Shown one piece after another: positions 21,001-54,795 of a DNA stretch of 64,000 nt (its first letter is position 1; each line of letters opens with the position of its first letter). Both the position numbers and the translations under genes were made by a program. Origin of the DNA: Lytechinus pictus (lineage: Eukaryota); the NCBI RefSeq assembly GCF_037042905.1, contig NC_087251.1:29018001-29082000 (forward strand), in the 5' to 3' direction. Under the pieces are notes generated by a model that saw only the letters and a list, made by a program, of their open reading frames with translations, did no database searches and was not told where the DNA came from.

Positions 21001-23235
21001 GCATCCTAACTGATTATTACAGCGAGAATCAAGAGGATCCAGTGAGTTTGAATTTTCGACCCCCTCGCCCCACCCGCGACATGGAAAATCGGGCAAAATT
21101 GGCAAAAATTGAGCAAAATAATATTTGTTCAATATTTCCCCCGAAACCCCCCCCAAATTAGCCGTCTTCACTCCCTGGGATGTTTAAGCATCCTAACCGA
21201 TTATTACAGCGAGACTCATGAGGATCCAGGGAGTTTGAATTTTTGACCCCCTCGCCCCACCCGCGACATGGAAAATTGGGCAAAATTGGCCAAAATTGAG
21301 CAAAATAATATTTGTTCAATATTTCCCCCGAAACCCCCCCAAATCAGCCGTCTTCGCTCCCTGGGATGTTTTAGCATCCTAACCGATTATTACAGCGAGA
21401 ATCAAGAGGATCCAGGGAGTTTGAATTTTCGACCCCCTCGCCCCACCCGCGACATGGAAAATTGGGCAAATTTGGCCAAAATTGAGCAAAATAATATTTG
21501 TTCAATATTTCCCCCGAAACCCCCCCAAATCAGCCGTCTTCGCTCCCTGGGATGTTTTAGCATCCTAACCGATTATTACAGCGAGAATCAAGAGAATCAA
21601 GAGGATCCAGGGAGTTTGAATTTTCGACCCCCTCGCCCCACCCGCGACATGGAAAATTTGGGAAAATTGGCCAAAATTGAGCAAAATAATATTTGTTCAA
21701 TATTTCCCCCGAAACCCCCCCAAATCAGCCGTCTTCGTTCCCTGGGATGTTTTAGCATCTTAACCGATTATTACAGCGAGAATCAAGAGGATCCAGGGAG
21801 TTTGAATTTTCGACCCCATTGCCCCACCCGCGACATGGAAAATTGGGCAAAATTGGCCAAAATTGAGCAAAATAATATTTGTTTAATATTTCCCCCGAAA
21901 CCCCCCCAAATCAGCCGTCTTCGCTCCCTGGGATGTTTTAGCATCCTAACCGATTATTACAGCGAGAATCAACAGGATCCAGGGAGTTTGAATTTTCGAC
22001 CCCCTCGCCCCACCCGCGACATGGAAAATTGGGCAAAATTGGCCAAAATTGAGCAAAATAACATTTGTTAAATATTTCCCCCGAAAACCCTCCAAATCAG
22101 CCGTCTTTGCTCCCTGGGATGTTTTAGCATCCTAACCGATTATTACAGCGAGAATCAACAGGATCCAGGGAGTTTGAATTTTCGACCCCCTCGCCCCACC
22201 CGCGACATGGAAAATTGGGCAAAATTGGCCAAACTTGAGCAAAATAATATTTGTTCAATATTTCCCCCGAAACCCCCCCAAATCAGCCGTCTTCGCTCCC
22301 TGGGATGTTTTAGCATCCTAACAGATTATTACAGCGAGAATCAAGAGGATCCAGGGAGTTTGAATTTTCGACCCCCTCGCCCCACCCGCGACATGGAAAA
22401 TTGGGCAAAATTGGCCAAAATTGAGCAAAATAATATTTGTTCAATATTTCCCCAGAAACCCCCCCAAATCAGCCGTCTTCGCTCCCTGGGATGTTTTAGC
22501 ATCCTAACAGATTATTACAGCGAGAATCAAGAGGATCCAGGGAGTTTGAATTTTCGACCCCCTCGCCCCACCCGCGACATGGAAAATTGGGCAAAATTGG
22601 CCAAAATTGAGCAATATAATATTTGTTCAATATTTCCCCCGAAACCCCCCCAAATCAGCCGTCTTCGCTCCCTGGGATGTTTTAGCATCCTAACCGATTA
22701 TTACAGCGAGAATCAAGAGGATCCAGGGAGTTTGAATTTTCGACCCCCTCGCCCCACCCGCGACATGGAAAATTGGGCAAAATTGGCCAAAATTGAGCAA
22801 AATAATATTTGTTCAATATTTCCCCCGAAACCCCCCCAAATCAGCCGTCTTTGCTCCCTGGGATGTTTAAGCATCCTAACCGATTATTACAGCGAGAATC
22901 AAGAGGATCCAGGGAGTTTGAATTTTCGACCCCCTCGCCCAACCCGCGACATGGAAAATTGGCCAAAATTGAGCAAAATAATATTTGTTCAATATTTCCC
23001 CCGAAACCCCCCCCCCAAATCAGCCGTCTTTGCTCCCTGGGATGTTTTAGCATCCTAACCGATTATTACAGCGAGAATCAAGATGATCCAGGGAGTTTGA
23101 ATTTTCGACCCCCTCGCCCCACCCGCGACATGGAAAATTGGGCAAAATTGGCCAAAATTGAGAAAAATAATTTTTGTTTAATATTGCCCCTGAAACCCCC
23201 CCAAATCAGCCGTCTTCGCTCCCTGGGATGTTTTA
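1..23235 (+). repeat. Satellite array A, ~186-bp monomer (~125 copies; continues beyond the window start)
   Basis: Head-to-tail repeats of AATTTTCGACCCCCTCGCCCCACCCGCGACATGGAAAATTGGGCAAAATTGGCCAAAATTGAGCAAAATAATATTTGTTCAATATTTCCCCCGAAACCCCCCCAAATCAGCCGTCTTCGCTCCCTGGGATGTTTTAGCATCCTAACCGATTATTACAGCGAGAATCAAGAGGATCCAGGGAGTTTG. Length variants are 176, 185, 195 and 196 bp. The array ends abruptly at ...GGATGTTTTA|CATG. Confidence 0.98.
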
Positions 23236-25395
23236 CATGTAGGATTTATAGGAAAGAAAATTGTAGGCCCTATAATTCTATATACAAAACATAGGGATTT
23301 TCTTCATTTCAAATTGCCAAGTTTTTTTTCTAAAAACAACACCCCTTTAATAATTGATCTAAAAATCCTCTTTACAGTAAATAGGTAAAAGAAATAGAAT
23401 ACAGTACGAAAAATTCTTCATAATAGTCACCAAGAGAATTTCAATTATCATGGTTATTTTTATCCACAGATCAGAAACCAAATCCTGTAGTTACCGGTAA
23501 TGGAAATGCTTTTTCTCCATAGAAAAGGCATTTGATAAGGTATTTAACCTGTAAAACAAATCAAAGTACTAAAATGTGTGCTACATCCTCAGAAGTGTAT
23601 TAAACTTATCAAACAGTTAGCTTGTCTACAGGGCAGCGGCCAGCTCTCAGAGAATACATTCAAATCAGAAAACACAAAAGAGGATACATAAATCTATTTT
23701 TTGTTGACTGCCTGTTCAACTTATTGTTTTTGTTAAAAATTGGAAGATGCTAAAATATCCATCAAAGAGGTACGTTAATATCTATATTAGATATTAACAT
23801 ACAATATAGTCATCAGTCTTATCAGACAGTGTTTGACTTAATTAATTCAGTGTGTTTTTTTTTCTTTTATTCCCCTTCTTTCCCTTCCTGTTCAGTAGTC
23901 TCCAGTCTTCGTTAGCACAGAGGGTGACCCAGGATTTTGTGAATTATATTATCACCTTTATTACACACCAACCACTTCGGGTTTTTTTTTAAACAAAGAG
24001 GGACCCCCCACTCACTTCTAGGGTCTTATACTTTACATGTTATTGTAGTGCACATCTACCAACTGATAAATCTTGACTAGATCTAGGCCTCTACCCCTGG
24101 CAATAGAAAACAGTATTATAATATATTAGAGCTACACTACCCTATTCCATAGCTCTATCATAAACCCAGGGGGCTCCACCACCGAAAGCGAAGGCAGCGG
24201 AGGCCCCATCTCCCGAAGGTCTAAGTTAGAACCTACACATGTACATGTACTGGATTCTATTTGAATTTTAATGTCAGAGTTAAAAAGTCAGGTTTAAGAT
24301 AAGACATAGAAGAGATCTAGAGTAACATTTGTGGTTCTAGTAGATCTATAATGTTAGCTTACTAATGATGTAAAGACAGTTTCAATCTTGGGCCCTAGAA
24401 TAGACTAATTACAAGCGATTGATCGTATTGCCTGAGCTAGATATCTATCCTAGATCTCTTGTATTGCTAAACTAGATTAGGTCCCGCATTAGGTCTCGAT
24501 TTTGATCTATAAAGCATGAATGGAAGGAGCCCCAGCCAGACCCAGTCCAGGGGCAGGGCTGCACCACCCCATTCCCTGGCCAGGACCAAGGTCCAAACCG
24601 GGGTAGGCCTAGACTAAAGTAGTAATGCCGGGCCAGCTCAGCTCATCCAAAATTTCTTAGATCAACAAGACAACAGTTAGATATAGACTAAGTCTAAATT
24701 AGATGCTAAGTCCTAGATAGAAAACTATCTACTGTAAATCTAGACTAGGAGTTAAAAGGGGCCAAGCAAGTAGGCCTACTTGCTAGGGCCTGGCCCTGCA
24801 TGGCCATGCCTATTTCATGCTTTTTAAATCTCCGAACAGTTACATAGATAGGCTCAGCCCAACTTATTTAGGCCTGTGCTAGGCCCTAACTTCCGGCTAG
24901 GCCTAGAAATAGTCGAGGGCCTGGCTCTAACGGTCAGTGAGTGATAGAGTAAATTTTGTATAGACTCTAAAGAGAGGGTCTAACAGTTAGTCTAATCTAG
25001 ACTAGGCCTAACGTTGGAACTTAGATCTATTAGGCTGGGTTAGGGAGGAGGGAGCAACAAATTTCTAAATTAATTAATTTGAATATATTTGGTTAGTATG
25101 ATCAGATGTCAAAGTGGAATTTGGCCTAGTCTAATATTAAAGAAAGTTATGATGTTTCAAATACAGTGATAGATAGATCAACAGAAAACAACACCACAAA
25201 TGCTTAATTTAACGTTACTCGTTAGACAATGACTAATAAGATAGAATTGACACAGATTTTATTCAAGATCTATTCTATTTCTAATCCCCAAAACTTCTTT
25301 AGATTTGCACTATCAACATTACACAAATAATTAAAATTATACGCCTGGCTTGCATCAGACTTGCTAGAGAGCATAAGACATAAATCGATCATTAC

Positions 25396-25604
25396 CCATT
25401 CAACAAAACTCCATGAACGACAGTCCTGCCAAATCTCGTCTTAGCAGCATATTCTTCATCGGTATGCAGAGGATTTGTGTCGCCCGAGAGTTCGGCGAAG
25501 AGAAGCACCTCTTCTCCGCTAAACGTCCTGGAGAGAGCGGCTTTATTTCCCTTTTGAAACCATAGCAAGACACTTGATCCTGACGCGTACATTCTTGAAA
25601 ACAT
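25396..25604 (-). CDS. HTD2: Coding exon of a MaoC/hot-dog-fold hydroxyacyl-thioester dehydratase type 2 (mitochondrial FAS II)-like gene; partial
   Basis: Translation ...RTFSGEEVLLFAELSGDTNPLHTDEEYAAKTRFGRTVVHGVLLNG carries the hydratase-2 motif (SGDxNPLHxDxxxA...FG..vHG). The frame ends at GG|GTAATG, a phase-2 splice donor at 25395. A possible acceptor TTTTATATAG|G at 25651 would extend the exon in frame upstream. Confidence 0.85.
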
Positions 25605-26067
25605 GAAGCTGCATCTTTGGAATGATTTGAAAGGGTGGAGAAGACATGTTCCTATATAAAAGACTAAATTAACGCAGAAAACCTAAATTTATTCCGGCTC
25701 GAACTCAGACAAAACTCGTTTCTGTGTTGACTCAAGCAGACTGCCCTCTGTTGACTGAATCCGTGAATTCTAAGGGGAATTCCCGTTCCGACGACGATCA
25801 ATAATCAATGGTTAGAATGATGATTTTCATGTGAGAAATACAGACATATGATAAACGAAGAGAGATCAATCGCAGGACCATGTGACTCGGAAAAGTTCAC
25901 TAGATAGATGGCGCATTGTTGTATTTACTATTTTAAAAAAAATCAGATTTATGTTAGTTGTCTTCATAGAGCAATACCACAACATATACCCTCTAAACAA
26001 AAAGAACGCCTTTATTTTACGTGTGTATATGGAAATGCCCCTGTGAAATTGCAAACAAAGATATTCG

Positions 26068-26247
26068 CAGGGGCCGCGGAACCGGGGAGGCTGGGGGGGG
26101 GGGGGCTGAAGCCACTTTTTTCCAAAACCGTGTACAAAAACGTAAAAATGACCATACGATTGTGATTTTTAGCATGGTCAGCCCCCCCCCCCCACTTTTG
26201 GCTCAGCCCCCCCCCCCCCCACTTTGAAAACCGTTCCGCGGCCCCTG
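26068..26247. mobile_element. 180-bp MITE with CAG...CTG ends (hAT-like, non-autonomous)
   Basis: 15-bp TIR CAGGGGCCGCGGAAC / GTTCCGCGGCCCCTG. Flanked by direct repeat ATTCG (26063-26067, 26248-26252). Internal poly-G and poly-C tracts. Confidence 0.85.
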
Positions 26248-26890
26248 ATTCGTACAGTCCAACATAAAGGGAAAATGTTCGATATAGACTAGAGTTCTGA
26301 TTGATATAATTGTGATGGAAACTAAGTTCATAAAAACAAATTTTGTGACTGGTAAAATAAAGTGTGGCTATAAAAAGAATTACGATTTAATAATACAAAA
26401 ATTTGTAAAATCAACTTTTATATATATTTTCTCATTCTTGATGAATTTCAACTTTCAAAGGAAAATCAAATTATTCTAATACTTATTTAAAGGATATGAT
26501 GGATAAGTGTTTCAACAACGAGGGGTGTTTGGCGTCAGTATGAAGTAGAATTTTATAATTTGATATTAATTGCTATACCCTGAGATAGTCAGCGAACAGA
26601 TACTAAAAAATGATTAATCAACAAACACAGAGAATATCCGGATTTTTTAAAAATAGATACATTCGTTGAGTCGACATAGATGGTTCACATAAATCGGAAA
26701 GATTGAATAAATTGCAAATAATTATTCAATTATTTATGAATTGTTTCAGTTGTAAAACATATCGATAATGAAATTTTAGATTGATTAATTCGTATATTCT
26801 ACAAATTAGTGACTAAAAATACTGATTCATTAAAATCTAGTGACGATAAATCAATTCAGAGGAAACATTACATTTTGAATTGTGTAGTTG

Positions 26891-27278
26891 TGTAGTGATA
26901 TGAATAACAGGTGCAGGCATAACTCTTGGGCATACATGTAGAGCCTGAAGTGAATTGTATTGTATGCCTGTATTGTATGACAGCACCAGGCAAGGTGCTT
27001 ATGAATAGAAACATTCTTGGTTTGGTTTATATGAGGCGTGTCCTGAACAGGACCATTGATACATGTATGTATTGAGAGAGTAGACAAGATGTACCATGCT
27101 AAGTAACCTGGCAGTTGACTCTTCATGCTCTTGTACATGTAGTTGTATGTGAACTCGGTTCTTGTAAAGTCTGAAGACTATATTGGAGTTAAAAGCTGAA
27201 TAAAGTGAATATCAAAATAACTTTCTGATCTGTATCGTTATTTTGTTCCCCGTCTATTTAAACTGGTAGTACGGATGG
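26891..27278 (+). mobile_element. Possible degenerate LTR plus primer-binding site
   Basis: Starts TGTAGTGATATG, has AATAAA at 27199, then TGGTAGTACGGATGG at 27264, which resembles the tRNA-iMet PBS (TGGTAGCAGAGGATGG). No clean CA end, no second LTR and no gag ORF are seen. Confidence 0.3.
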
Positions 27279-28039
27279 GGTCTGAAACTGGATAAAAACT
27301 CCTTGTTTTCAGACAATGTTTCTTCAGTACAATGGCATTGGTGTTCTGTCTCCATGATTGCAACAAATATGGGAATATACAAGAAACTGCTACTGTGTCC
27401 ATACAACTCGGATAACTAGTGAGGATAGAATGCTTTTATGGAAGGCATATAGTGACTATTTATCGCTCCTGCATGCACTGCGTTACTAAAGAGTCATGAC
27501 AACATGTCAGATGGTGCTGTAGCTGAAGTGGAGAAGCCTCCAGGCTAGTCAAGTGGTACAGTAACATCTATCCTCTGTGTCTGCAATATCAACTATCTAA
27601 GGTGGAACTGGAAGTTGCAGTTACGGAATACCGGTGATGTTTACTACTTCTTTTTGAGACTGAGAGTAAATTCTTCGTTCTGTGAAAAGCATTTGCTGAC
27701 TGAGGAGCCCAGCAGAATTTGTTTGAGCTGTCCTAGCTGTTTCGTCATCTAGAGAGTAGCGTGGATATTTAGGGAAGATAAAAATGGTATTTGACCCCAT
27801 TGAACTATGGAACGCGGAAAGGCTAAAATTTGATCACTGTCACTTTTGATTTGATGGACCTCCGTACCAGCCATCATCAAATCAAGTGCAGCCATCAGTA
27901 AATCAAAAGTGGCCATCATCATATCAATTTTCAGCATCATATCCCTCTGTACCAGCCATCATCAAATCAGTTTCTAACATCAAATCAATGTTGTCCTTTC
28001 GGCGTTCCTGATGTGCGCGCCAAAAGGACACCTGTAAGT

Positions 28040-29199
28040 TGATGGCAGCCACTTTTTATTTGATGACGGTTACTTTTGACTTGATGACGGCCACTTTTTA
28101 TTTGATGACGGTTACTTTTGACTTGATGACGGCCACTTTTTACTTGCTTTTTATTTGATGACGGTTACTTTTGACTTCATGACGGCCACTTTTGACTTGA
28201 TGGCGGCTGCTTTTGATTCGATGATGGCTGCTTTTGATTTGATGATGGCTGCTTTTGATTCGATAGTGGCCACTTTTGATTTGATGATGGCTGCTTCTGA
28301 TTTGATGATGGTTGCTTTTGATTCGATAGTGGCCACTTTTGAACTGATGATGGCCACTTTAGATTTGATGATGGTCACTTTCAATTTTTTTATCGCTTTT
28401 CATTTGATGGTCACTTTTTGTTTGATGGTCACTTTTTATTTGATCACTTAATTTGATGGTCACTTTTTATTTGATGGTCACTTTTTATTTGATGGTCACT
28501 TTTCATTTGATGGTCACTTTTCATTTGATGGTCGCTTTTAATTTGATGGGCACCTTTTATTTGATGATCACTTATTTGATGGTCACTTTTAATTTGATGG
28601 TCACTTTTAATTTGATGGTCACTTTTAATTTGATCATCAATTCTTATTTGATGGTCACTTTTAATTTGATGGTCGCTTTTTATTTAATGGTCACTTTTTA
28701 TTTGATGGTCACTTTAAATTTGATGGTCACTTTTAATTTGATGGTCATTTTTAATTTGATGCTCAGTTTTTATTTGATGGTCACTTTTAATTTGATGGTC
28801 GCTTTTTTGTTGCTCACTTTTTATTTGATGGTCACTTTTAATTTGATGGTCACTTTTTATTTGATCATCACTTTTTATCTGATCATCACTTCTTTGACGG
28901 TCACTTTTTATTTGATGGTCGCTTTTTATTTGATGGTTATTTTTTATTTGATGGCTACTTTAAATTTGATGATCACTTTTTATTTGATGGTTACTTTTTA
29001 TTTGATCGTCACTTCTTCTTTGATGGTCACTTTTCTTTTGATCGTCGCTTTTCATTTGATCATCACAATTTAAGTTGATGGTTTCGGCATTCCATACATG
29101 GTCGCTTTATATTTGATGGTCGCTTTTCATTTGATCGTCGCTTTTATTTGATCGGCACTTTTCATTTGGTCGTCGCTTTTCATTTGATCATCACTTTTT
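28040..29199 (+). repeat. Minisatellite in the left palindrome arm: 21-bp units then 18-bp units
   Basis: GATGATGGCYACTTTTGATTT-like units to ~28385, then TTTGATGGTCACTTTTTA-like units. These produce the MVTFYL-type repetitive ORFs. Confidence 0.95.
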
Positions 29200-30398
29200 A
29201 CAGTACGTGCGCATAAACGTGTCGCAGTGAGCATGCACTGAGCAAATCCTCATGTACGTATAGCTAGCGCGCTCTTTTTGCTTCCGAGAATTGAAGTGCA
29301 GGTGCATATATATGAATCTATTGATCGTGAAAAAATAAATCTGGAAAATGGAGGGTATACTTAATAGTTTAGGGATGCCTCAATCAGTTATTAACAACTT
29401 TCAACGGGAAGGGGTAAGTTGAAGTTAGAATTTACTTAGATCTAGACCTACGCTTTAGATCTAACTTTGTTTGTCTATTTTGTTGGTGTGAAACGGTACT
29501 ATAGGCCTTGGCCTAGGCCCTACTCCCTCACAACATTGTCACTGGGGCGTTGCACTGGGGCCTATGCTCTAGTATAGACCGGCTAGGCTAGGGCCCTATC
29601 TATAAGTGTCACTAGGCCTAGTCACTAATAAGCCTAGACCAACCTGACTCCATTGTTGAGAACTGTGCTAGTAACTTAGTGTTAGAGCCAGAGGCTACAC
29701 ACGAAACCCATGCAAATGCAGAAAAAATACAGTTAGTGTTCAGTTCTTAAATATTTTCAGATCTCTAGACCCTAATAATATTAATTTTAGCTGATGATTG
29801 GCATTGCCCATTTTGCAAATGCAGCGCGGCGGGGGCAGAGGGAGGGGGTAACACTAACGAGTAACGTTGAGTCTTATCCATTGTAGTTATACACTCAAGC
29901 CTAGCGCCTATAACATACAGTTCAATTGTTACTGTTAACCCCCTACCCTCTACTCCTGCCCCCGTTGTGTTGAAGAAAACCTTTTTTTTTTTTCTTTTTT
30001 TTTTTTGCTATAGGCTATTCATATTTATATATATATATATAAACAAGGCCATAGATATGAATAACAACAAACCGAGTCGCCCTTTTCCAAAACTCCCAAC
30101 CCCCCTCCCCCCAGAAAATTTGTTGCGTCTATTATTGGGCTTATTTTCTTTTTACCCAAAATTAAGGGGGGGGGGCTGCGTGCGCAACCTCCCAACCCCC
30201 TTGGCGACGGTCATGCAGTTGACCCACAGAAATTTAGAAAATTTATATTTTTCTTGCAAAAATGCATAAAATTTACAAAAAATTGTGCAACAAATCCTTC
30301 AAGTTCTGCTCGATTGCTTCGCTCCCTCACTTTCGAATAGGGTCTATTTTTGAAAATTGCAAGAGTTTTTAACAATGATGGGATGAGGATGTTTTAAA

Positions 30399-30615
30399 CA
30401 CTCTATCAAAAGTAGGTTCAATTTTGCACCTTTACCAATGTCACACCTGGAACACATTTAATGATGCAAATTTGCACCTTTCAGAAAAGAAATCACCTTA
30501 AAAGGTACAGCTTAATTGCACCTATTTTTCTGAAAGGTGCAAATTTGCATCATTAAATGTGTTCCAGGTGTGACATTGGTAAAGGTGCAAAATTGAACCT
30601 ACTTTTGATAGAGTG
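30399..30615. mobile_element. Small inverted-repeat element (CACTC...GAGTG ends) at the palindrome axis
   Basis: CACTCTATCAAAAG...CTTTTGATAGAGTG with a repeated TTGCACCT(T) subterminal motif, one copy of which lies in the asymmetric spacer. Resembles CACTA/EnSpm-type MITE ends. Its symmetry cannot be separated from that of the larger palindrome. Confidence 0.45.
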
Positions 30616-31814
30616 TTTAAAACATCCTCATCCCATCATTGTTAAAAACTCTTGCAATTTTCAAAAATAGACCCTATTCGAAAGTGAGGGAGCGAAGCAA
30701 TCGAGCAGAACTTGAAGGATTTGTTGCACAATTTTTTGTAAATTTTATGCATTTTTGCAAGAAAAATATAAATTTTCTAAATTTCTGTGGGTCAACTGCA
30801 TGACCGTCGCCAAGGGGGTTGGGAGGTTGCGCACGCAGCCCCCCCCCCCCCTTAATTTTGGGTAAAAAGAAAATAAGCCCAATAATAGACGCAACAAATT
30901 TTCTGGGGGGAGGGGGGTTGGGAGTTTTGGAAAAGGGCGACTCGGTTTGTTGTTATTCATATCTATGGCCTTGTTTATATATATATATATAAATATGAAT
31001 AGCCTATAGCAAAAAAAAAAAAAAAAAAAAAGGTTTTCTTCAACACAACGGGGGCAGGAGTAGAGGGTAGGGGGTTAACAGTAACAATTGAACTGTATGT
31101 TATAGGCGCTAGGCTTGAGTGTATAACTACAATGGATAAGACTCAACGTTACTCGTTAGTGTTACCCCCTCCCTCTGCCCCCGCCGCGCTGCATTTGCAA
31201 AATGGGCAATGCCAATCATCAGCTAAAATTAATATTATTAGGGTCTAGAGATCTGAAAATATTTAAGAACTGAACACTAACTGTATTTTTTCTGCATTTG
31301 CATGGGTTTCGTGTGTAGCCTCTGGCTCTAACACTAAGTTACTAGCACAGTTCTCAACAATGGAGTCAGGTTGGTCTAGGCTTATTAGTGACTAGGCCTA
31401 GTGACACTTATAGATAGGGCCCTAGCCTAGCCGGTCTATACTAGAGCATAGGCCCCAGTGCAACGCCCCAGTGACAATGTTGTGAGGGAGTAGGGCCTAG
31501 GCCAAGGCCTATAGTACCGTTTCACACCAACAAAATAGACAAACAAAGTTAGATCTAAAGCGTAGGTCTAGATCTAAGTAAATTCTAACTTCAACTTACC
31601 CCTTCCCGTTGAAAGTTGTTAATAACTGATTGAGGCATCCCTAAACTATTAAGTATACCCTCCATTTTCCAGATTTATTTTTTCACGATCAATAGATTCA
31701 TATATATGCACCTGCACTTCAATTCTCGGAAGCAAAAAGAGCGCGCTAGCTATACGTACATGAGGATTTGCTCAGTGCATGCTCACTGCGACACGTTTAT
31801 GCGCACGTACTGTA

Positions 31815-33027
31815 AAAAGTGATGATCAAATGAAAAGCGACGACCAAATGAAAAGTGCCGATCAAATAAAAGCGACGATCAAATGAAAAGCGACCATCAA
31901 ATATAAAGCGACCATGTATGGAATGCCGAAACCATCAACTTAAATTGTGATGATCAAATGAAAAGCGACGATCAAATAAAAAGTGACCATCAAATAAAAA
32001 GCGACCATCAAATAAAAAGTGAGCATCAAATGAAAAGTGAGCATCAAATAAAAAGTGACCATCAAATAAAAAGTGACCATCAAATAAAAATCTATCATCA
32101 AATTAAAAGTGAGCATCAAATGAAAAATGAGCATAAAATGAAAAGTGAGCATCAAATAAAAAGCGACCATCAAATAAAAAGTGACCGTCAAAGAAGTGAT
32201 GATCAGATAAAAAGTGATGATCAAATAAAAAGTGACCATCAAATTAAAAGTGACCATCAAATAAAAAGTGAGCAACAAAAAAGCGACCATCAAATTAAAA
32301 GTGACCATCAAATAAAAACTGAGCATCAAATTAAAAATGACCATCAAATTAAAAGTGACCATCAAATTTAAAGTGACCATCAAATAAAAAGTGACCATTA
32401 AATAAAAAGTGACCATCAAATAAGAATTGATGATCAAATTAAAAGTGACCATCAAATTAAAAGTGACCATCAAATTAAAAGTGACCATCAAATAAGTGAT
32501 CATCAAATAAAAGGTGCCCATCAAATTAAAAGCGACCATCAAATGAAAAGTGACCATCAAATGAAAAGTGACCATCAAATAAAAAGTGACCATCAAATAA
32601 AAAGTGACCATCAAATTAAGTGATCAAATAAAAAGTGACCATCAAACAAAAAGTGACCATCAAATGAAAAGCGATAAAAAAATTGAAAGTGACCATCATC
32701 AAATCTAAAGTGGCCATCATCAGTTCAAAAGTGGCCACTATCGAATCAAAAGCAACCATCATCAAATCAGAAGCAGCCATCATCAAATCAAAAGTGGCCA
32801 CTATCGAATCAAAAGCAGCCATCATCAAATCAAAAGCAGCCATCATCGAATCAAAAGCAGCCGCCATCAAGTCAAAAGTGGCCGTCATGAAGTCAAAAGT
32901 AACCGTCATCAAATAAAAAGCAAGTAAAAAGTGGCCGTCATCAAGTCAAAAGTAACCGTCATCAAATAAAAAGTGGCCGTCATCAAGTCAAAAGTAACCG
33001 TCATCAAATAAAAAGTGGCTGCCATCA
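31815..33027 (-). repeat. Minisatellite in the right palindrome arm (mirror copy, 54 bp longer)
   Basis: Reverse complement of 28040-29199 with a different unit composition near 31960-32160 (224-aa vs 206-aa pseudo-ORF). Confidence 0.95.
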
Positions 33028-33371
33028 ACTTACAGGTGTCCTTTTGGCGCGCACATCAGGAACGCCGAAAGGACAACATTGATTTGATGTTAGAAACTGA
33101 TTTGATGATGGCTGGTACAGAGGGATATGATGCTGAAAATTGATATGATGATGGCCACTTTTGATTTACTGATGGCTGCACTTGATTTGATGATGGCTGG
33201 TACGGAGGTCCATCAAATCAAAAGTGACAGTGATCAAATTTTAGCCTTTCCGCTGGTACGGAGGTCCATCAAATCAAAAGTGACAGTGATCAAATTTTAG
33301 CCTTTCCGCGTTCCATATTGAACGAGGTTCAACACTGCGTGCGTGAGTAAATCTAGACCACTCACACAACA

Positions 33372-36300
33372 TGTCAGAAATTGGGCAAAATAATTTTTTT
33401 CCAAAAAAGCCCCCCTAAACCCCCCCAAACCAGCCGTCTTCGCTCCGAGGGGTCTTCTGGCATCCGAATGGGTCAATATACAAAGAATAAAGAAGATCGA
33501 TTTCGAAAAGATTTTCGGGTCTCTCGCCCCACCCGCGACCTGGCCATATTGTCAGAAATTGGGCAAAATAATTTTTTTCCAAAAAAGCCCCCCTCAACAC
33601 CCCCAAACCAGCCGTCTTCGCTCCGAGGGGTCTTCTGGCACCCGAATGGGTCAATATACAAAGAATAAAGAAGATCGATTTCGAAAAGATTTTCGGGTCT
33701 CTCGCCCCACCCGCGACCTGGCCAAATTGTCAGAAATTGGGCAAAATAATTTTTTTCCAAAAAAGCCCCCCTAAACCCCCCAAACCAGCCGTCTTCGCTC
33801 CGAGGGGTCTTCTGGCATCCGAATGGGTCAATATACAAAGAATAAAGAAGATCGATTTCGAAAAGATTTTCGGGTCTCTCGCCCCACCCGCGACCTGGCC
33901 AAATTGTCAGAAATTGAGCAAAATAATTTTTTTCCAAAAAAGCCCCCCTAAACCCCCCCAAACCAGCCGTCTTCGCTCCGAGGGGTCTTCTGGCATCCGA
34001 ATGGGTCAATATACAAAGAATAAAGAAGATCGATTTCGAAAAGATTTTCGGGTCTCTCGCCCCACCCGCGACCTGGCCAAATTGTCAGAAATTGAGCAAA
34101 ATAATTTTTTTTCCAAAAAAGCCCCCCTAAACACCCCCAAACATGCCGTCTTCGCTCCGAGGGGTCTTCTGGCATCCGAATGGGTCAATATACAAAGAAT
34201 AAAGAAGATCGATTTCGAAAAGATTTTCGGGTCTCTCGCTCCACCCGCGACCTGGCCAAATTGTCAGAAATTGAGCAAAATAATTTTTTTCCAAAAAAGC
34301 CCCCCTAAACCCCCCCAAACCAGCCGTCTTCGCTCCGAGGGGTCTTCTGGCATCCGAATGGGTCAATATACAAAGAATAAAGAAGATCGATTTCGAAAAG
34401 ATTTTCGGGCCTCTCGCCCCACCCGCGACCTGGCCATATTGTCAGAAATTGGGCAAAATAATTTTTTTCCAAAAAAGCCCCCCTCAACACCCCCAAACCA
34501 GCCGTCTTCGCTCCGAGGGGTCTTCTGGCACCCGAATGGGTCAATATACAAAGAATAAAGAAGATCGATTTCGAAAAGATTTTCGGGTCTCTCGCCCCAC
34601 CCGCGACCTGGCCAAATTGTCAGAAATTGGGCAAAATAATTTTTTTCCAAAAAACCCCCCTAAACCCCCCAAACCAGCCGTCTTCGCTCCGAGGGGTCTT
34701 CTGGCATCCGAATGGGTCAATATACAAAGAATAAAGAAGATCGATTTCGAAAAGATTTTCGGGTCTCTCGCCCCACCCGCGACCTGGCCAAATTGTCAGA
34801 AATTGAGCAAAATAATTTTTTTTCCAAAAAAGCCCCCCTAAACACCCCCAAACATGCCGTCTTCGCTCCGAGGGGTCTTCTGGCATCCGAATGGGTCAAT
34901 ATACAAAGAATAAAGAAGATCGATTTCATGAAGATTTTCGGGTCTCTCGCTCCACCCGCGACCTGGCCAAATTGTCAGAAATTGAGCAAAATAATTTTTT
35001 TCCAAAAAAGCCCCCCTAGACCCCCCCAAACCAGCCGTCTTCGCTCCGAGGGGTCTTTTGGCATCCGAATGGGTCAACATACAAAGAAAAAAGATGATCG
35101 ATTTTGAAAAGATTTTTGGGTCTCTCGCCCCACCCGCGACCTGGCCAAATTGTCAGAAATTGAGCAAAATAATTTTTTTCCAAAAAAGCCCCCCTAAACC
35201 CCCCCAAACAAGCCGTCTTCGCTCCGAGGGGTCTTCTGGCATCCAAATGGGTCAATATACAAAGAATAAAGAAGATTGATTTCGAAAAGATTTTCGGGTC
35301 TCTCGCCCCACCCGCAACCTGGCCAAATTGTCAGAAATTGAGCAAAATAATTTTTTTCCAAAAAAGCCCCCCTAAACCCCCCAAACCAGCCGTCTTCGCT
35401 CCGAGGGGTCGTCTGGCATCCGAATGGGTCAATATACAAAGAATAAAGAAGATCGATTTCGAAAAGTATTTTGGGTCTCTCGCCCCACCCGCGACCTGGC
35501 CAAATTGTCAGAAATTGAGCAAAATAATTTTTTCCAAAAAAGCCCCCCTAAACCCCCCCAAACCATCCGTCTTCGCTCCGAGGGGTCTTCTGGCATCCTA
35601 ATGGGTCAATATACAAAGAATAAAGAAGATAGATTTCGAAAAGATTTTCGGGTCTTTCGCCCCAACCGCGACCTGGCGAAATTGTCAGAAATTGAGCAAA
35701 ATAATTTTTTTCAAAAAAAGCACCCCTAAACCCCCCCAAACCAGCCGTCTTCGCTCCGAGGGGTCTTCTGGCATCCGAATGGGTCAATATACAAAGAATA
35801 AAGAAGATCGATTTCGAAAAGAATTTCGGGTCTCTCGCCCTACCCGCGACCTGGCCAAATTGTCAGAAATTGAGCAAAATAATTTTTTTCCAAAAAAGCC
35901 CCCCTAAACCCCCCCAAACCAGCCGTCTTGCTCCGAGGGGTCTTCTGGCATCCGAATGGGTCAATATACAAAGAATAAAGAAGATCGATTTCAAAAAGAT
36001 TTTCGGGTCTCTCGCCCCACCCGCGACCTGGCCAAATTGTCAGAAATTGGGCAAAATAATTTTTTTCCAAAAAAGCCCCCCTAAACCCCCCCAAACCAGC
36101 CGTCTTCGCTCCGAGGGGTCTTCTGGCATCCGAATTGGTCAATATACAAAGAATAAAGAAGATCGATTTCAAAAAGATTTCCGGGTCTCTCGCCCCTCCC
36201 GCGACCTGGCCAAATTGTCAGAAATTGAGCAAAATAATTTTTTTCCAAAAAAGCCCCCCTAAACCCCCCCCAAACCAGCCGTCTTCGCTCCGAGGGGTCT

Positions 36301-39300
36301 TCTGGCATCCGAATGGGTCAATATACAAAGAATAAAGAAGATCGATTTCGAAAAGATTTTCGGGTCTCTCGCCCCACCCGCGACCTGGCCAAATTGTCAG
36401 AAATTGAGCAAAATAATTTTTTTCCAAAAAAGCCCCCCTAAACCCCCCCAAACCAGCCGTCTTCGCTCCGAGGGGTCTTCTGGCATCCGAATGGGTCAAT
36501 ATACAAAGAATAAAGAAGATCGATTTCGAAAAGATTTTCGGGTCTCTCGCCCCACCCGCGACCTGGCCAAATTGTCAGAAATTGAGCAAAATAATTTTTT
36601 TCCAAAAAAGCCCCCCTAAACCCGCCCAAACCAGCCGTCTTCGCTCCGAGGGGTCTTCTGGCATCCGAATGGGTCAATATACAAAGAATAAAGAAGATCG
36701 ATTTCGAAAAGATTTTCGGGTCTCTCGCCCCATCCGCGACCTGGCCAAATTGTCAGAAATTGAGCAAAATAATTTTTTTCCAAAAAAGCCCCCCTAAACC
36801 CCCCCAAACCAGCCGTCTTCGCTCCGAGGGGTCTTCTGGCATCCGAATTGGTCAATATACAAAGAATAAAGAAGATCGATTTCAAAAAGATTTCCGGGTC
36901 TCTTGCCCCTCCCGCGACCTGGCCAAATTGTCAGAAATTGAGCAAAATAATTTTTTTCCAAAAAAGCCCCCCTAAACCCCCCCCAAACCAGCCGTCTTCG
37001 CTCCGAGGGGTCTTCTGGCATCCGAATGGGTCAATATACAAAGAATAAAGAAGATCGATTTCGAAAAGATTTTCGGGTCTCTCGCCCCACCCGCGACCTG
37101 GCCAAATTGTCAGAAATTGAGCAAAATAATTTTTTTCCAAAAAAGCCCCCCTAAACCCCCCCAAACCAGCCGTCTTCGCTCCGAGGGGTCTTCTGGCATC
37201 CGAATTGGTCAATATACAAAGAATAAAGAAGATCGATTTCAAAAAGATTTCCGGGTCTCTCGCCCCTCCCGCGACCTGGCCAAATTGTCAGAAATTGAGC
37301 AAAATAATTTTTTTCCAAAAAAGCCCCCCTAAACCCCCCCCAAACCAGCCGTCTTCGCTCCGAGGGGTCTTCTGGCATCCGAATGGGTCAATATACAAAG
37401 AATAAAGAAGATCGATTTCGAAAAGATTTTCGGGTCTCTCGCCCCACCCGCGACCTGGCCAAATTGTCAGAAATTGAGCAAAATAATTTTTTTCCAAAAA
37501 AGCCCCCCTAAACCCCCCCAAACCAGCCGTCTTCGCTCCGAGGGGTCTTCTGGCATCCGAATGGGTCAATATACAAAGAATAAAGAAGATCGATTTCGAA
37601 AAGATTTTCGGGTCTCTCGCCCCACCCGCGACCTGGCCAAATTGTCAGAAATTGAGCAAAATAATTTTTTTCCAAAAAAGCCCCCCTAAACCCGCCCAAA
37701 CCAGCCGTCTTCGCTCCGAGGGGTCTTCTGGCATCCGAATGGGTCAATATACAAAGAATAAAGAAGATCGATTTCGAAAAGATTTTCGGGTCTCTCGCCC
37801 CATCCGCGACCTGGCCAAATTGTCAGAAATTGAGCAAAATAATTTTTTTCCAAAAAAGCCCCCCTAAACCCCCCCAAACCAGCCGTCTTCGCTCCGAGGG
37901 TCTTCTGGCATCCGAATTGGTCAATATACAAAGAATAAAGAAGATCGATTTCAAAAAGATTTTCGGGTCTCTCGCCCCTCCCGCGACCTGGCCAAATTGT
38001 CAGAAATTGAGCAAAATAATTTTTTTCCAAAAAAGCCCCCCTAAACCCCCCCCAAACCAGCCGTCTTCGCTCCGAGGGGTCTTCTGGCATCCGAATGGGT
38101 CAATATACAAAGAATAAAGAAGATCGATTTCGAAAAGATTTTCGGGTCTCTCGCCCCACCCGCGACCTGGCCAAATTGTCAGAAATTGAGCAAAATAATT
38201 TTTTTCCAAAAAAGCCCCCCTAAACCCCCCCAAACCAGCCGTCTTCGCTCCGAGGGGTCTTCTGGCATCCGAATTGGTCAATATACAAAGAATAAAGAAG
38301 ATCGATTTCAAAAAGATTTCCGGGTCTCTCGCCCCTCCCGCGACCTGGCCAAATTGTCAGAAATTGAGCAAAATAATTTTTTTCCAAAAAAGCCCCCCTA
38401 AACCCCCCCCAAACCAGCCGTCTTCGCTCCGAGGGGTCTTCTGGCATCCGAATGGGTCAATATACAAAGAATAAAGAAGATCGATTTCGAAAAGATTTTC
38501 GGGTCTCTCGCCCCACCCGCGACCTGGCCAAATTGTCAGAAATTGAGCAAAATAATTTTTTTCCAAAAAAGCCCCCCTAAACCCCCCCAAACCAGCCGTC
38601 TTCGCTCCGAGGGGTCTTCTGGCATCCGAATGGGTCAATATACAAAGAATAAAGAAGATCGATTTCGAAAAGATTTTCGGGTCTCTCGCCCCACCCGCGA
38701 CCTGGCCAAATTGTCAGAAATTGAGCAAAATAATTTTTTTCCAAAAAAGCCCCCCTAAACCCCCCCAAACCAGCCGTCTTCGCTCCGAGGGGTCTTCTGG
38801 CATCCGAATGGGTCAATATACAAAGAATAAAGAAGATCGATTTCGAAAAGATTTTCGGGTCTCTCGCCCCATCCGCGACCTGGCCAAATTGTCAGAAATT
38901 GAGCAAAATAATTTTTTTCCAAAAAAGCCCCCCTAAACCCCCCCAAACCAGCCGTCTTCGCTCCGAGGGGTCTTCTGGCATCCGAATGGGTCAATATACA
39001 AAGAATAAAGAAGATCGATTTCAAAAAGATTTTCGGGTCTCTCGCCCCATCCGCGACCTGGCCAAATTGTCAAAAATTGAGCAAAATAATTTTTTTTCCA
39101 AAAAAGCCCCCCTAAACACCCCCAAACCAGCCGTCTTCGCTCCGAGGGGTCTTCTGGCATCCGAATGGGTCAATATACAAAGAATAAAGAAGATCGATTT
39201 CAAAAAGATTTTCGGGTCTCTCGCCCCACCCGCAACCTGGCCAAATTGTCAGAAATTGGGCAAAATAATTTTTTTCCAAAAAAGCCCCCCTAAACCCCCC

Positions 39301-42300
39301 CAAACCAGCCGTCTTCGCTCCGAGGGGTCTTCTGGCATCCGAATGGGTCAATATACAAAGAATAAAGAAGACCGATTTCAAAAAGATTTTCGGGTCTCTC
39401 GCCCCTCCCGCGACCTGGCCAAATTGTCAGAAATTTAGCAAAATAATTTTTTTCCAAAAAAGCCCCCCTAAACCCCCCCAAACCAGCCGTCTTCGCTCCG
39501 AGGGGTCTTCTGGCATCCGAATGGGTCAATATACAAAGAATAAAGAAGATCGATTTCGAAAAGATTTTCGGGTCTCTCGCCCCATCCGCGACCTGGCCAA
39601 ATTGTCAAAAATTGAGCAAAATAATTTTTTTTCCAAAAAAGCCCCCCTAAACACCCCCAAACCAGCCGTCTTCGCTCCGAGGGGTCTTCTGGCATCCGAA
39701 TGGGTCAATATACAAAGAATAAAGAAGATCGATTTCAAAAAGATTTTCGGGTCTCTCGCCCCACCCGCGACCTGGCCAAATTGTCAGAAATTGGGCAAAA
39801 TAATTTTTTTCCAAAAAAGCCCCCCTAAACCCCCCCAAACCAGCCGTCTTCGCTCCGAGGGGTCTTCTGGCATCCGAATGGGTCAATATACAAAGAATAA
39901 AGAAGATCGATTTCGAAAAGATTTTCGGGTCTCTCGCACTTCCCGCGACCTGGTCAAATTGTCAGAAATTGAGCAAAATAATTTTTTTCCAAAAAAGCCC
40001 CCCTAAACCCCCCCAAACCAGCCGTCTTCGCTCCGAGGGGTCTTCTGGCATCCGAATGGGTCAATATACAAAGAATAAAGAAGATCGATTTCGAAAAGAT
40101 TTTCGGGTCTCTCGCCCCATCCGCGACCTGGCCAAATTGTCAAAAATTGAGCAAAATAATTTTTTTTCCAAAAAAGCCCCCCTAAACACCCCCAAACCAG
40201 CCGTCTTCGCTCCGAGGGGTCTTCTGGCATCCGAATGGGTCAATATACAAAGAATAAAGAAGATCGATTTCAAAAAGATTTTCGGGTCTCTCGCCCCACC
40301 CGCGACCTGGCCAAATTGTCAGAAATTGGGCAAAATAATTTTTTTCCAAAAAAGCCCCCCTAAACCCCCCCAAACCAGCCGTCTTCGCTCCGAGGGGTCT
40401 TCTGGCATCCGAATGGGTCAATATACAAAGAATAAAGAAGATCGATTTCAAAAAGATTTTCGGGTCTCTCGCCCCTCCCGCGACCTGGCCAAATTGTCAT
40501 AAATTGAGCAAAATAATTTTTTTCCAAAAAAGCCCCCCTAAACACCCCCAAACCAGCCGTCTTCGCTCCGAGGGGTCTTCTGGCATCCGAATGGGTCAAT
40601 ATACAAAGAATAAAGAAGATCGATTTCAAAAAGATTTTCGGGTCTCTCGCCCCACCCGCGACCTGGCCAAATTGTCAGAAATTGGGCAAAATAATTTTTT
40701 TCCAAAAAAGCCCCCCTAAACCCCCCCAAACCAGCCGTCTTCGCTCCGAGGGGTCTTCTGGCATCCGAATGGGTCAATATACAAAGAATAAAGAAGATCG
40801 ATTTCAAAAAGATTTTCGGGTCTCTCGCCCCTCCCGCGACCTGGCCAAATTGTCAGAAATTGAGCAAAATAATTTTTTTCCAAAAAAGCCCCCCTAAACC
40901 CCCCCCAAACCAGCCGTCTTCGCTCCGAGGGGTCTTCTGGCATCCGAATGGGTCAATATACAAAGAATAAAGAAGATCGATTTCGAAAAGATTTTCGGGT
41001 CTCTCGCACTTCCCGCGACCTGGTCAAATTGTCAGAAATTGAGCAAAATAATTTTTTTCCAAAAAAGCCCCCCTAAACCCCCCCAAACCAGCCGTCTTCG
41101 CTCCGAGGGGTCTTCTGGCATCCGAATGGGTCAATATACAAAGAATAAAGAAGACCGATTTCAAAAAGATTTTCGGGTCTCTCGCCCCTCCCGCGACCTG
41201 GCCAAATTGTCAGAAATTTAGCAAAATAATTTTTTTCCAAAAAAGCCCCCCTAAACCCCCCCAAACCAGCCGTCTTCGCTCCGAGGGGTCTTCTGGCATC
41301 CGAATGGGTCAATATACAAAGAATAAAGAAGATCGATTTCGAAAAGATTTTCGGGTCTCTCGCCCCATCCGCGACCTGGCCAAATTGTCAAAAATTGAGC
41401 AAAATAATTTTTTTTCCAAAAAAGCCCCCCTAAACACCCCCAAACCAGCCGTCTTCGCTCCGAGGGGTCTTCTGGCATCCGAATGGGTCAATATACAAAG
41501 AATAAAGAAGATCGATTTCAAAAAGATTTTCGGGTCTCTCGCCCCACCCGCGACCTGGCCAAATTGTCAGAAATTGGGCAAAATAATTTTTTTCCAAAAA
41601 AGCCCCCCTAAACCCCCCCAAACCAGCCGTCTTCGCTCCGAGGGGTCTTCTGGCATCCGAATGGGTCAATATACAAAGAATAAAGAAGATCGATTTCGAA
41701 AAGATTTTCGGGTCTCTCGCACTTCCCGCGACCTGGTCAAATTGTCAGAAATTGAGCAAAATAATTTTTTTCCAAAAAAGCCCCCCTAAACCCCCCCAAA
41801 CCAGCCGTCTTCGCTCCGAGGGGTCTTCTGGCATCCGAATGGGTCAATATACAAAGAATAAAGAAGATCGATTTCGAAAAGATTTTCGGGTCTCTCGCCC
41901 CATCCGCGACCTGGCCAAATTGTCAAAAATTGAGCAAAATAATTTTTTTTCCAAAAAAGCCCCCCTAAACACCCCCAAACCAGCCGTCTTCGCTCCGAGG
42001 GGTCTTCTGGCATCCGAATGGGTCAATATACAAAGAATAAAGAAGATCGATTTCAAAAAGATTTTCGGGTCTCTCGCCCCACCCGCGACCTGGCCAAATT
42101 GTCAGAAATTGGGCAAAATAATTTTTTTCCAAAAAAGCCCCCCTAAACCCCCCCAAACCAGCCGTCTTCGCTCCGAGGGGTCTTCTGGCATCCGAATGGG
42201 TCAATATACAAAGAATAAAGAAGATCGATTTCAAAAAGATTTTCGGGTCTCTCGCCCCTCCCGCGACCTGGCCAAATTGTCATAAATTGAGCAAAATAAT

Positions 42301-45300
42301 TTTTTTCCAAAAAAGCCCCCCTAAACACCCCCAAACCAGCCGTCTTCGCTCCGAGGGGTCTTCTGGCATCCGAATGGGTCAATATACAAAGAATAAAGAA
42401 GATCGATTTCAAAAAGATTTTCGGGTCTCTCGCCCCACCCGCGACCTGGCCAAATTGTCAGAAATTGGGCAAAATAATTTTTTTCCAAAAAAGCCCCCCT
42501 AAACCCCCCCAAACCAGCCGTCTTCGCTCCGAGGGGTCTTCTGGCATCCGAATGGGTCAATATACAAAGAATAAAGAAGATCGATTTCAAAAAGATTTTC
42601 GGGTCTCTCGCCCCTCCCGCGACCTGGCCAAATTGTCAGAAATTGAGCAAAATAATTTTTTTCCAAAAAAGCCCCCCTAAACCCCCCCCAAACCAGCCGT
42701 CTTCGCTCCGAGGGGTCTTCTGGCATCCGAATGGGTCAATATACAAAGAATAAAGAAGATCGATTTCGAAAAGATTTTCGGGTCTCTCGCACTTCCCGCG
42801 ACCTGGTCAAATTGTCAGAAATTGAGCAAAATAATTTTTTTCCAAAAAAGCCCCCCTAAACCCCCCCAAACCAGCCGTCTTCGCTCCGAGGGGTCTTCTG
42901 GCATCCGAATGGGTCAATATACAAAGAATAAAGAAGATCGATTTCGAAAAGATTTTCGGGTCTCTCGCCCCATCCGCGACCTGGCCAAATTGTCAAAAAT
43001 TGAGCAAAATAATTTTTTTCTCCAAAAAAGCCCCCCTAAACACCCCCAAACCAGCCGTCTTCGCTCCGAGGGGTCTTCTGGCATCCGAATGGGTCAATAT
43101 ACAAAGAATAAAGAAGATCGATTTCAAAAAGATTTTCGGGTCTCTCGCCCCACCCGCGACCTGGCCAAATTGTCAGAAATTGGGCAAAATAATTTTTTTC
43201 CAAAAAAGCCCCCCTAAACCCCCCCAAACCAGCCGTCTTCGCTCCGAGGGGTCTTCTGGCATCCGAATGGGTCAATATACAAAGAATAAAGAAGATCGAT
43301 TTCAAAAAGATTTTCGGGTCTCTCGCCCCTCCCGCGACCTGGCCAAATTGTCAGAAATTGAGCAAAATAATTTTTCTCCAAAAAAGCCCCCCTAAACACC
43401 CCCAAACCAGCCGTCTTCGCTCCGAGGGGTCTTCTGGCATCCGAATGGGTCAATATACAAAGAATAAAGAAGATCGATTTCGAAAAGATTTTCGGGTCTC
43501 TCGCCCCACCCGCGACCTGGCCAAATTGTCAGAAATTGAGCAAAATAATTTTTTTTCCAAAAAAGCCCCCCTAAACACCCCCAAACCAGCCGTCTTCGCT
43601 CCGAGGGGTCTTCTGGCATCCGAATGGGTCAATATACAAAGAATAAAGAAGATCGATTTCAAAAAGATTTTCGGGTCTCTCGCCCCACCCGCGACCTGGC
43701 CAAATTGTCAAAAATTGAGCAAAATAATTTTTTTTCCAAAAAAGCCCCCCTAAACACCCCCAAACCAGCCGTCTTCGCTCCGAGGGGTCTTCTGGCATCC
43801 GAATGGGTCAATATACAAAGAATAAAGAAGATCGATTTCAAAAAGATTTTCGGGTCTCTCGCCCCACCCGCGACCTGGCCAAATTGTCAGAAATTGGGCA
43901 AAATAATTTTTTTCCAAAAAAGCCCCCCTAAACCCCCCCAAACCAGCCGTCTTCGCTCCGAGGGGTCTTCTGGCATCCGAATGGGTCAATATACAAAGAA
44001 TAAAGAAGATCGATTTCAAAAAGATTTTCGGGTCTCTCGCCCCTCCCGCGACCTGGCCAAATTGTCAGAAATTGGGCAAAATAATTTTTTTCCAAAAAAG
44101 CCCCCCTAAACCCCCCAAACCAGCCGTCTTCGCTCCGAGGGGTCTTCTGGCATCCGAATGGGTCAATATACAAAGAATAAAGAAGATCGATTTCGAAAAG
44201 ATTTTCGGGTCTCTCGCCCCATCCGCGACCTGGCCAAATTGTCAGAAATTGAGCAAAATAATTTTTTTTCCAAAAAAGCCCCCCTAAACACCCCCAAACC
44301 AGCCGTCTTCGCTCCGAGGGGTCTTCTGGCACCCGAATGGGTCAATATACAAAGAATAAAGAAGATCGATTTCGAAAAGATTTTCGGGTCTCTCGCCCCA
44401 CCCGCGACCTGGCCAAATTGTCAGAAATTGGGCAAAATAATTTTTTTCCAAAAAAGCCCCCCTAAACCCCCCAAACCAGCCGTCTTCGCTCCGAGGGGTC
44501 TTCTGGCATCCGAATGGGTCAATATACAAAGAATAAAGAAGATCGATTTCGAAAAGATTTTCGGGTCTCTCGCCCCACCCGCGACCTGGCCAAATTGTCA
44601 GAAATTGAGCAAAATAATTTTTTTCCAAAAAAGCCCCCCTTAACCCCCCCAAACCAGCCGTCTTCGCTCCGAGGGGTCTTCTGGCATCCGAATGGGTCAA
44701 TATACAAAGAATAAAGAAGATCGATTTCGAAAAGATTTTCGGGTCTCTCGCCCCATCCGCGACCTGGCCAAATTGTCAGAAATTGAGCAAAATAATTTTT
44801 TTTCCAAAAAAGCCCCCCTAAACACCCCCAAACCAGCCGTCTTCGCTCCGAGGGGTCTTCTGGCATCCGAATGGGTCAATATACAAAGAATAAAGAAGAT
44901 CGTTTTCGAAAAGATTTTTGGGTCTCTCGCCCCACCCGCGACCTGGCCAAATTGTCAGAAATTGAGCAAAATAATTTTTTTCCAAAAAAGCCCCCCTAAA
45001 CCCCCCCAAACCAGCCGTCTTGCTCCGAGGGGTCTTCTGGCATCCGAATGGGTCAATATACAAAGAATAAAGAAGATCGATTTCAAAAAGATTTTCGGGT
45101 CTCTCGCCCCACCCGCGACCTGGCCAAATTGTCAGAAATTGGGCAAAATAATTTTTTTCCAAAAAAGCCCCCCTAAACCCCCCCAAACCAGCCGTCTTCG
45201 CTCCGAGGGGTCTTCTGGCATCCGAATTGGTCAATATACAAAGAATAAAGAAGATCGATTTCAAAAAGATTTCCGGGTCTCTCGCCCCTCCCGCGACCTG

Positions 45301-50362: not shown

Positions 50363-50365
50363 ATA

Positions 50366-50401
50366 CGCATGCGCAGCGGAATGGAGTAGGAGCGCCATTT
50401 T
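50366..50401 (+). promoter_or_regulatory. Putative internal promoter motifs at the LINE 5' end
   Basis: CGCATGCGCA (NRF1-like, 50366-50375) and CGCCATTTT (YY1-like, 50393-50401) lie within the first 40 bp of the element. Confidence 0.4.
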
Positions 50402-50533
50402 TGAGTTCTAGTCATGAAATTTTCATAATATGACTTTTATCGTCAGGAACCATTATTTGAGGTAAAGACCGGTTTATTATATCAATATAACATTCGGTGT
50501 ATCATCTGACATATTTTGGGGGATTTTCTCCTC

Positions 50534-51400: not shown

Positions 51401-51849
51401 AAGAGTAAGAACCCACGATTATTCTTGTTGCCCTAATACTAGAGCAAAGTTGTCTTAAAATAATAATATAATGATCAGCACAAACAATTTTTCCGGAATG
51501 TTCTTCAAATTCTAGTAACTCATATCCTATGTAAAAATCAAACGCCTTAGTTGGATCAAAGCTCACCAACACGGTCATAGGCCTACATACTTTATACACA
51601 GGTGTATGCTGTTTGAATTGCTTACAAGAAGCTAACCTTGTGTTAGTGTCTCTACCAAATATCTGTAATATCGAATTCTTATAGGCCTGGTAGTGTATAA
51701 TCCATATTTTGACATAAACATGGTTTCCAAATCGTTTAGTAAACGAAACACATTTTAATATTCATACAGCTATAATGTAAAGGTTGTAATTTATCCCCCA
51801 AACAAACCAAAACAACAACATCCAAATCTTCATAAGTCCTTCACCTAAA

Positions 51850-54700: not shown

Positions 54701-54795
54701 TGCTGTTATGACACAGAAAATTTACACACAAATCACATATCATAACAATAATCTTAAGTTTTTGGTAATATCAAATTATCCTCCTGAGTAATGAC

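Follow-up and report, generated by a model that had tools for sequence, protein, structure and literature searches.

How a 5.5-kb, almost spacer-less palindrome with the ends of a transposon came into being is the question raised by a stretch of the Lytechinus pictus genome (contig NC_087251.1 of assembly GCF_037042905.1, forward-strand positions 29,018,001 to 29,082,000), which we refer to at its full length of 64,000 nucleotides as the window and number from its first letter. The palindromic element spans 27806-33317, and there is no whole gene inside it. A 37-bp spacer at 30489-30525 separates a left arm of 2683 bp (27806-30488) from a right arm of 2792 bp (30526-33317) that is the reverse complement of the left one, arm and spacer lengths that had been given in a preliminary description of the locus and that are borne out by the coordinates and by global alignment. 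We propose, with moderate confidence, that this is an IS3EU-type palindrome born during the repair of a break, in which one inner end was copied over the other and the inverted halves of a miniature inverted-repeat transposable element (MITE) provided the homology for rejoining.

The termini of the element read TATGG..CCATA, both are intact, and the same hexamer lies directly outside each of them:

27800-27805, forward strand: TTGAAC, left copy of the 6-bp target-site duplication (TSD), directly outside the element end
33318-33323, forward strand: TTGAAC, right copy of the 6-bp TSD, directly outside the element end

The chance of a 6-bp match exactly at both ends is ~3.3e-4 when estimated from flank composition, with one copy of the element scored. 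Two copies of the terminal 22-mer are present in the window, versus 0 expected from 100 shuffles, and the flanks are not mirror-symmetric (best local score 19, within the range of 200 shuffles, which had a mean of 18.1 and a maximum of 24). The TTGAAC bracket, the TATGG ends and the asymmetry of the flanks all stand as they were first described. The further suggestion that the palindrome transposed as a unit is an interpretation: the TSD shows that a member of the family inserted here, but it is also compatible with the insertion of a non-palindromic element that was converted later. Because a normal element converted in place keeps the same duplication, a jump of the palindrome itself is not established by it, and we regard a jump as a palindrome and conversion in place after a normal copy had inserted as about evenly balanced.

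The published accounts describe IS3EU elements as having TAYGG..CCRTA ends and 6-bp TSDs (PMC12730594) or TA..TA ends with a TSD that is usually 6 bp (PMC10045372), and the terminal inverted repeats (TIRs) of GingerRoot as 100-150 bp long (PMC6839031). The element resembles IS3EU and GingerRoot in that TATGG..CCATA fits TAYGG..CCRTA, in its 6-bp TSD and in a TIR longer than 30 bp; it differs from them in having no transposase, a ~1.45-kb TIR filled with arrays and 2.7-kb arms, and in being palindromic over nearly all of its length. The descriptions of IS3EU (PMC12730594 and PMC10045372) support the earlier attribution of the ends and TSD to this type, and the element probably belongs to IS3EU. 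When the terminal 17-mer was looked for in metagenome contigs, none of the 43 loci found extended beyond it (of 38 further bases, no more than 14 match), and these loci are taken as chance.

From the terminus inward, each arm comprises a short end segment, then the 21-bp array, ~47-50 units of the 18-bp array and ~1.3 kb of unique sequence, with the following parts:

27806-29258, forward strand: left outer domain, likely the family's true TIR (TIR1), with the TATGG end and the arrays; inner boundary from a branch at 29258 in public run X1, described below
28039-28381, forward strand: 21-bp array of the left arm, from repeat analysis
28369-29200, forward strand: 18-bp array of the left arm, ~47 units, from repeat analysis
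28929-29036, forward strand: left-arm-specific block of six 18-bp units, 0 of 6 with an exact copy in the right arm
29259-30398, forward strand: left copy of inner sequence A, richer in CpG and probably exon 1 and intron 1 DNA of a parent-element gene, from X1 contigs
30616-31754, reverse strand: inner sequence A, mirror copy, with no substitution and two homopolymer length changes
31755-33317, reverse strand: right outer domain, likely TIR2, with arrays, a 56-bp tandem duplication (33196-33309) and the CCATA end, from repeats and arm alignment
31813-32698, reverse strand: 18-bp array of the right arm, ~50 units, from repeat analysis
31977-32156, reverse strand: right-arm-specific block of ten 18-bp units, 6 of 10 without an exact copy in the left arm and 4 of 10 shared
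32686-33028, reverse strand: 21-bp array of the right arm, from repeat analysis

This layout bears out the foldback-like arms, with outer tandem repeats and a non-repetitive inner domain, of the preliminary description. Sea-urchin TU elements likewise have long modular arms, with tandem repeats in the outer domain and unique sequence in the inner one.

Globally aligned, the two arms match in 2644 columns and mismatch in 16, with gaps of 56, 18, 72, 4 and 3 bp. All 16 mismatches and the 72-bp gap are confined to one block of the 18-bp array. The 827 bp of 27814-28640 are exact between the arms, the inner 1433 bp carry no substitution and only two homopolymer length changes, and the 56-bp gap is an exact tandem duplication at 33196-33309, 8 bp inside the right end, which leaves the terminal 22-mer intact. 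Neither arm-specific block can derive from the other by copying. The presence of two differing array blocks in arms that are otherwise free of substitutions points to two templates, as would be expected if both of the original TIRs had been kept.

Public contig data bear on where those TIRs end. Seven public runs were listed for 26900-30560; all contigs of four of them, X1, X2, X4 and X5, were aligned to 29205-30590. The X1 contigs are identical to the window over 29229-29767 and 30182-30488, and the stretch 29768-30181, which has no X1 cover, is uninformative in either direction. The first X1 record (222 nt, depth 11.8) stops at 29258. A second (29229-29767, depth 5.93) continues past this point as the window does, while a third (depth 5.52) diverges there into an unlike sequence, B, of at least 255 letters. 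In X1, the outer ~1.45 kb is joined to two different inner sequences at similar depth, and the window copy carries one of them, A, twice. This branch supports the earlier view that the element is made of two copies of the same end, and the true TIR of the family is likely this outer ~1.45 kb. The other end of the first record, if it is collinear with the window, falls at 29037, the first base inward of the left-arm-specific block. The simplest reading of these records would be a family whose TIR covers ~27806-29258 and which has an A and a B inner end as well as two variants of the array. A fifth X1 record (36 bp with 6 differences) was taken as chance. Of the words of 26900-30560, run X4 contains 0.37 and run X5 0.25, yet their only matches to 29205-30590 are 36-48 bp long and less than 90% alike, and they provide no evidence.

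The branch could be accommodated by an ordinary foldback family with a 2.7-kb TIR that multiplies as a palindrome, B then being a sister family that shares the outer domain. We consider this quite unlikely, although the exact 6-bp duplication at intact ends agrees with it; what it leaves unexplained lies further inward, at the axis and in the probable exon of each arm.

The remaining X1 record, 351 nt long, corresponds to window positions 30482-30832 without a difference and contains the spacer and one of its junctions, evidence that also bears on whether the palindrome is a fold-back read or assembly artefact. That no independent record bridges the hairpin by at least 31 letters on each side would agree with an artefact, as would the placement of the element between satellite arrays. 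However, an artefact copies one strand and would not give differing in-register units or a 56-bp duplication, nor would it stop precisely where the element ends, with a direct repeat of 6 bp and flanks that are not mirrored. The two differing array blocks in particular disfavor a fold-back read, and with the spacer and one junction present in X1 we judge an artefact to be very improbable.

The axis of the palindrome lies within a separate small element:

30399-30615, no strand assigned: 217-bp MITE-like element at the center, CACTCT..AGAGTG, its 90-bp inverted halves exact on either side of a 37-bp spacer, from the X2 pile-up
30489-30525, no strand assigned: non-palindromic 37-bp spacer, the middle of the MITE-like element, crossed by X2 records 12 and 13 and exact in the 351-nt X1 record

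Run X2 carries a different organism label, and 1263 of its 1693 aligned contigs are less than 95% alike to the window. Its contigs pile up on 30380-30590 with a summed depth of 13,000-54,000, versus at most 114 elsewhere. Among the matches listed, 147 loose ends fall at 30398 with an agreement of 0.39, which corresponds to varied flanks, and the pieces extend either up to the spacer (30397/9-30488) or across it (30471-30571 and 30483-30590). In X2 the unit is short and non-coding, has inverted-repeat ends and occurs in many copies with unrelated flanks; as judged from these contigs, the central 217 bp belongs to a small, many-copy MITE-like family in the X2 organism. Majority changes in X2 at 30544 and 30550 are without a listed mirror partner at 30470 and 30464, a hint that the halves of natural copies may differ, whereas those in the window are exact. 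Ends of the form CAC..GTG with a duplication of 2-3 bp (or TA) are described for EnSpm / CMCT-type elements (PMC12730594). The ends of the MITE, CACTCT..AGAGTG, fit this form, the duplication of the window copy having been lost to mirroring, and one X2 loose-end consensus has TA before CACTCT.

The bases beside the 217-bp MITE in the window are mirrored (AA on the left, TT on the right) and not directly duplicated. Insertion of the MITE into a ready-made palindrome is ruled out by these flanks, which are mirrored instead of duplicated, and the mirrored bases indicate that the palindrome was made after the MITE was in place. An ordinary foldback family would leave unexplained why the axis bisects a copy of a separate MITE family and why the flanks of this copy are mirrored.

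The same hinge evidence fits a one-step fold-back equally well. On that account a break just past the MITE would have freed its two halves to fold onto each other, and synthesis primed there would have mirrored the left end in full, with the array block converted later from another member of the family. In yeast, natural inverted repeats close to a break have been shown to support priming by fold-back (PMC10622511, PMC7999016), and the arms are otherwise identical, outward of the block as well. However, a one-step fold-back requires a second event for the two array blocks and a later excision from mirrored flank, and the flanks here are not mirrored; the likely branch of X1 at 29037 suggests, in addition, that both blocks are standing variants of the family. 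We therefore regard a one-step fold-back as unlikely.

There is no long non-repeat open reading frame (ORF) in the element, those of 100 or more residues being mostly translations of the arrays or of low-complexity DNA, and its earlier description as non-autonomous is supported by this absence. The element contains no ORF for an integrase-like DDE transposase, as expected of a non-autonomous copy, and there were no Rfam matches in 23200-33400 and no tRNA genes by ARAGORN. What is present in each arm is a probable first exon:

29348-29413, forward strand: probable first exon, directed inward, which opens with ATG and after 22 codons reaches a GTAAGT donor, from the codon-position pattern of X2 changes
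31600-31665, reverse strand: mirror copy of the probable first exon, from sequence and arm alignment

Run X2 holds a diverged relative of inner sequence A at 29319-29464, around the probable exon, and at 29628-29768, 29816-29862 and 30192-30379, and two X2 contigs join ~29858 to 30216 or 30268, skipping the homopolymer-rich middle of A. Among the 13 exon changes listed, pooled from 1-5 X2 contigs, 8 fall at third codon positions (p 0.035) and 6 are synonymous (p 0.031). Two observations count against an exon: the X2 change at 29385, found in 1 contig, is on its own a stop, and one X2 contig is without the base at 29371. The 22-residue peptide has no match in Pfam or the PDB, and no convincing candidate for a second exon was found in the inner arm; a resemblance of the peptide to the starts of SAM domains is supported by no search. 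From the pattern of changes, 29348-29413 is probably the first exon of a parent-element gene that was cut off by the fold. An ordinary foldback family would leave a single truncated exon per arm unexplained, and it would describe a later stage that is compatible with an origin in repair.

The repair origin that we favor can be laid out in steps. The parent would have had the structure TIR1-A...B-TIR2, X1 showing the outer ~1.45 kb followed by the two inner sequences. An independently mobile 217-bp MITE, as is shown in the X2 relative, would in this genome have occupied the intron-like portion of A. Once a break had occurred, the TIR2 end would have taken TIR1 as its template, starting within 29037-29258; copying would have proceeded inward across A as far as the near MITE half, followed by annealing to the far half. 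The predicted product, TIR1-A-MITE-A'-TIR2, would have lost B and all genes and kept both array variants. With its termini intact, it could be moved in trans by an IS3EU transposase, for which the 18- and 21-bp arrays are predicted to be binding sites.

Several points weigh against this origin. Only five X1 contigs aligned, four of them at least 99% alike to the window, and the run may be the window's own source sample; its depth is shallow (3.7-11.8), and contig depth is not copy number. No parent has been observed whole, B is known from the loose end of one contig, and A and B at equal depth fit two sister palindromic families equally well. The outward end of the first X1 record falls beyond the aligned stretch. 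The 351-nt X1 record holds 307 bp of one arm and 7 bp of the other, and the hairpin is not bridged independently. There is no separate MITE copy among the five X1 contigs, the independence of the MITE being shown in X2, for which the figures for changes and loose ends are among the matches listed. Finally, no transposase is linked to the ends of the element.

The element sits in a 10-kb non-satellite block at a junction of satellite arrays. Two related arrays (local alignment score 107), with units of 186 and 178 bp, occupy 1-23235, 33372-50362 and 58202-64000. The host segment that received the element is bracketed by a 13-bp direct repeat (27499-27511 and 33366-33378), the right copy of which overlaps the start of the 178-bp satellite; without the insert this segment is 349 bp long, made up of 27505-27805 and 33324-33371, and has TG..CA ends, resembling a long terminal repeat (LTR). 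A further LTR-like stretch lies at ~26880-27290, and we take a TGG motif at ~27264, after this stretch, to resemble a primer-binding site. A small element of 180 bp at 26068-26247 ends in exact inverted repeats of 15 bp and is flanked on either side by a direct repeat of 5 bp. Within the 178-bp satellite, ~50360-58200 is occupied by a non-LTR retrotransposon with a 296-residue open frame (50510-51400), 3.4 kb to the next frame, a 987-residue frame (54769-57732) with endonuclease and reverse-transcriptase domains, and a tail of 5-bp repeats.

Polinton / Maverick elements carry polymerase and integrase genes between long TIRs. Although a 6-bp duplication is listed for them as well (PMC6839031), membership is ruled out, there being no polymerase or integrase ORFs in the element. 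For Galileo copies with extended TIRs, an arrangement TIR1-F1-F1-TIR2 produced by repair between ends has been proposed (PMC3573991); the branch at 29258 in X1 supports such an architecture for the element. The Galileo copies with 'two extended or recombinant TIR' (2RT), found in Drosophila mojavensis and D. willistoni (PMC3573991, PMC4168063), are, like the element here, non-autonomous, with a mirrored inner sequence and tandem repeats in long TIRs. They differ from it in that inserted elements join both TIRs of Galileo, whereas here one palindromic MITE forms the axis. Galileo belongs to the P superfamily, with duplications of 7-8 bp (PMC4168063) and TIRs of up to ~1.26 kb; with a 6-bp TSD and no P-type transposase, membership of the element in Galileo is ruled out on the basis of these descriptions.

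Foldback elements such as Drosophila FB and Tetris have long arms, outer tandem repeats with an inner unique domain and a non-coding middle (PMC4079207), as is the case here. In contrast to Tetris, the element has a 6-bp TSD, IS3EU ends and a middle of only 37 bp, and a Tetris or Mutator-type foldback is ruled out by the 6-bp TSD, as Tetris is described with 8-10 bp duplications and assigned to Mutator (PMC4079207). Large palindromes arise in yeast and hamster cells from inverted repeats of 42-229 bp beside a break (PMC7999016). The repeat-primed palindromes of yeast and mammalian cells are like the element in that a short inverted repeat becomes the center and its spacer that of the palindrome (PMC7999016, PMC10622511), but they are chromosome-scale and unstable, whereas the palindrome here is bounded by transposon ends and predicted to be mobile. 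Beyond the Galileo and Tetris papers we found no MITE-hinged or two-same-ended palindromic transposon of eukaryotes in the literature, subscription papers and Repbase being largely outside the search; similarly, no foldback form of IS3EU was found in the literature searched, and subscription papers, Repbase entries and supplements may bear on this point.

The new part of our proposal is the MITE hinge; IS3EU ends, Galileo-type extension of TIRs and repeat-primed palindromes are each already known. Very long foldback arms are usually put down loosely to 'TIR elongation'. The element described here preserves traces of its origin in two TIR variants, one inner end that is doubled and an axis in the middle of a MITE. 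It is also a natural palindrome with 2.7-kb arms whose 37-bp spacer lies between a spacer of 12 bp, with which eukaryotic forks stalled, and one of 52 bp, with which they did not (PMC7999016). As a tentative possibility, palindromic MITEs nested in large two-gene IS3EU transposons may act as a general hinge on which these collapse into gene-less but still mobile giant palindromes, the MITE setting the fold and donating the spacer; some of the products would then multiply although so short a spacer could make them unstable. If parent copies confirm the origin proposed here, the element would show concretely, for IS3EU, how an ordinary transposon can turn into a giant palindrome.

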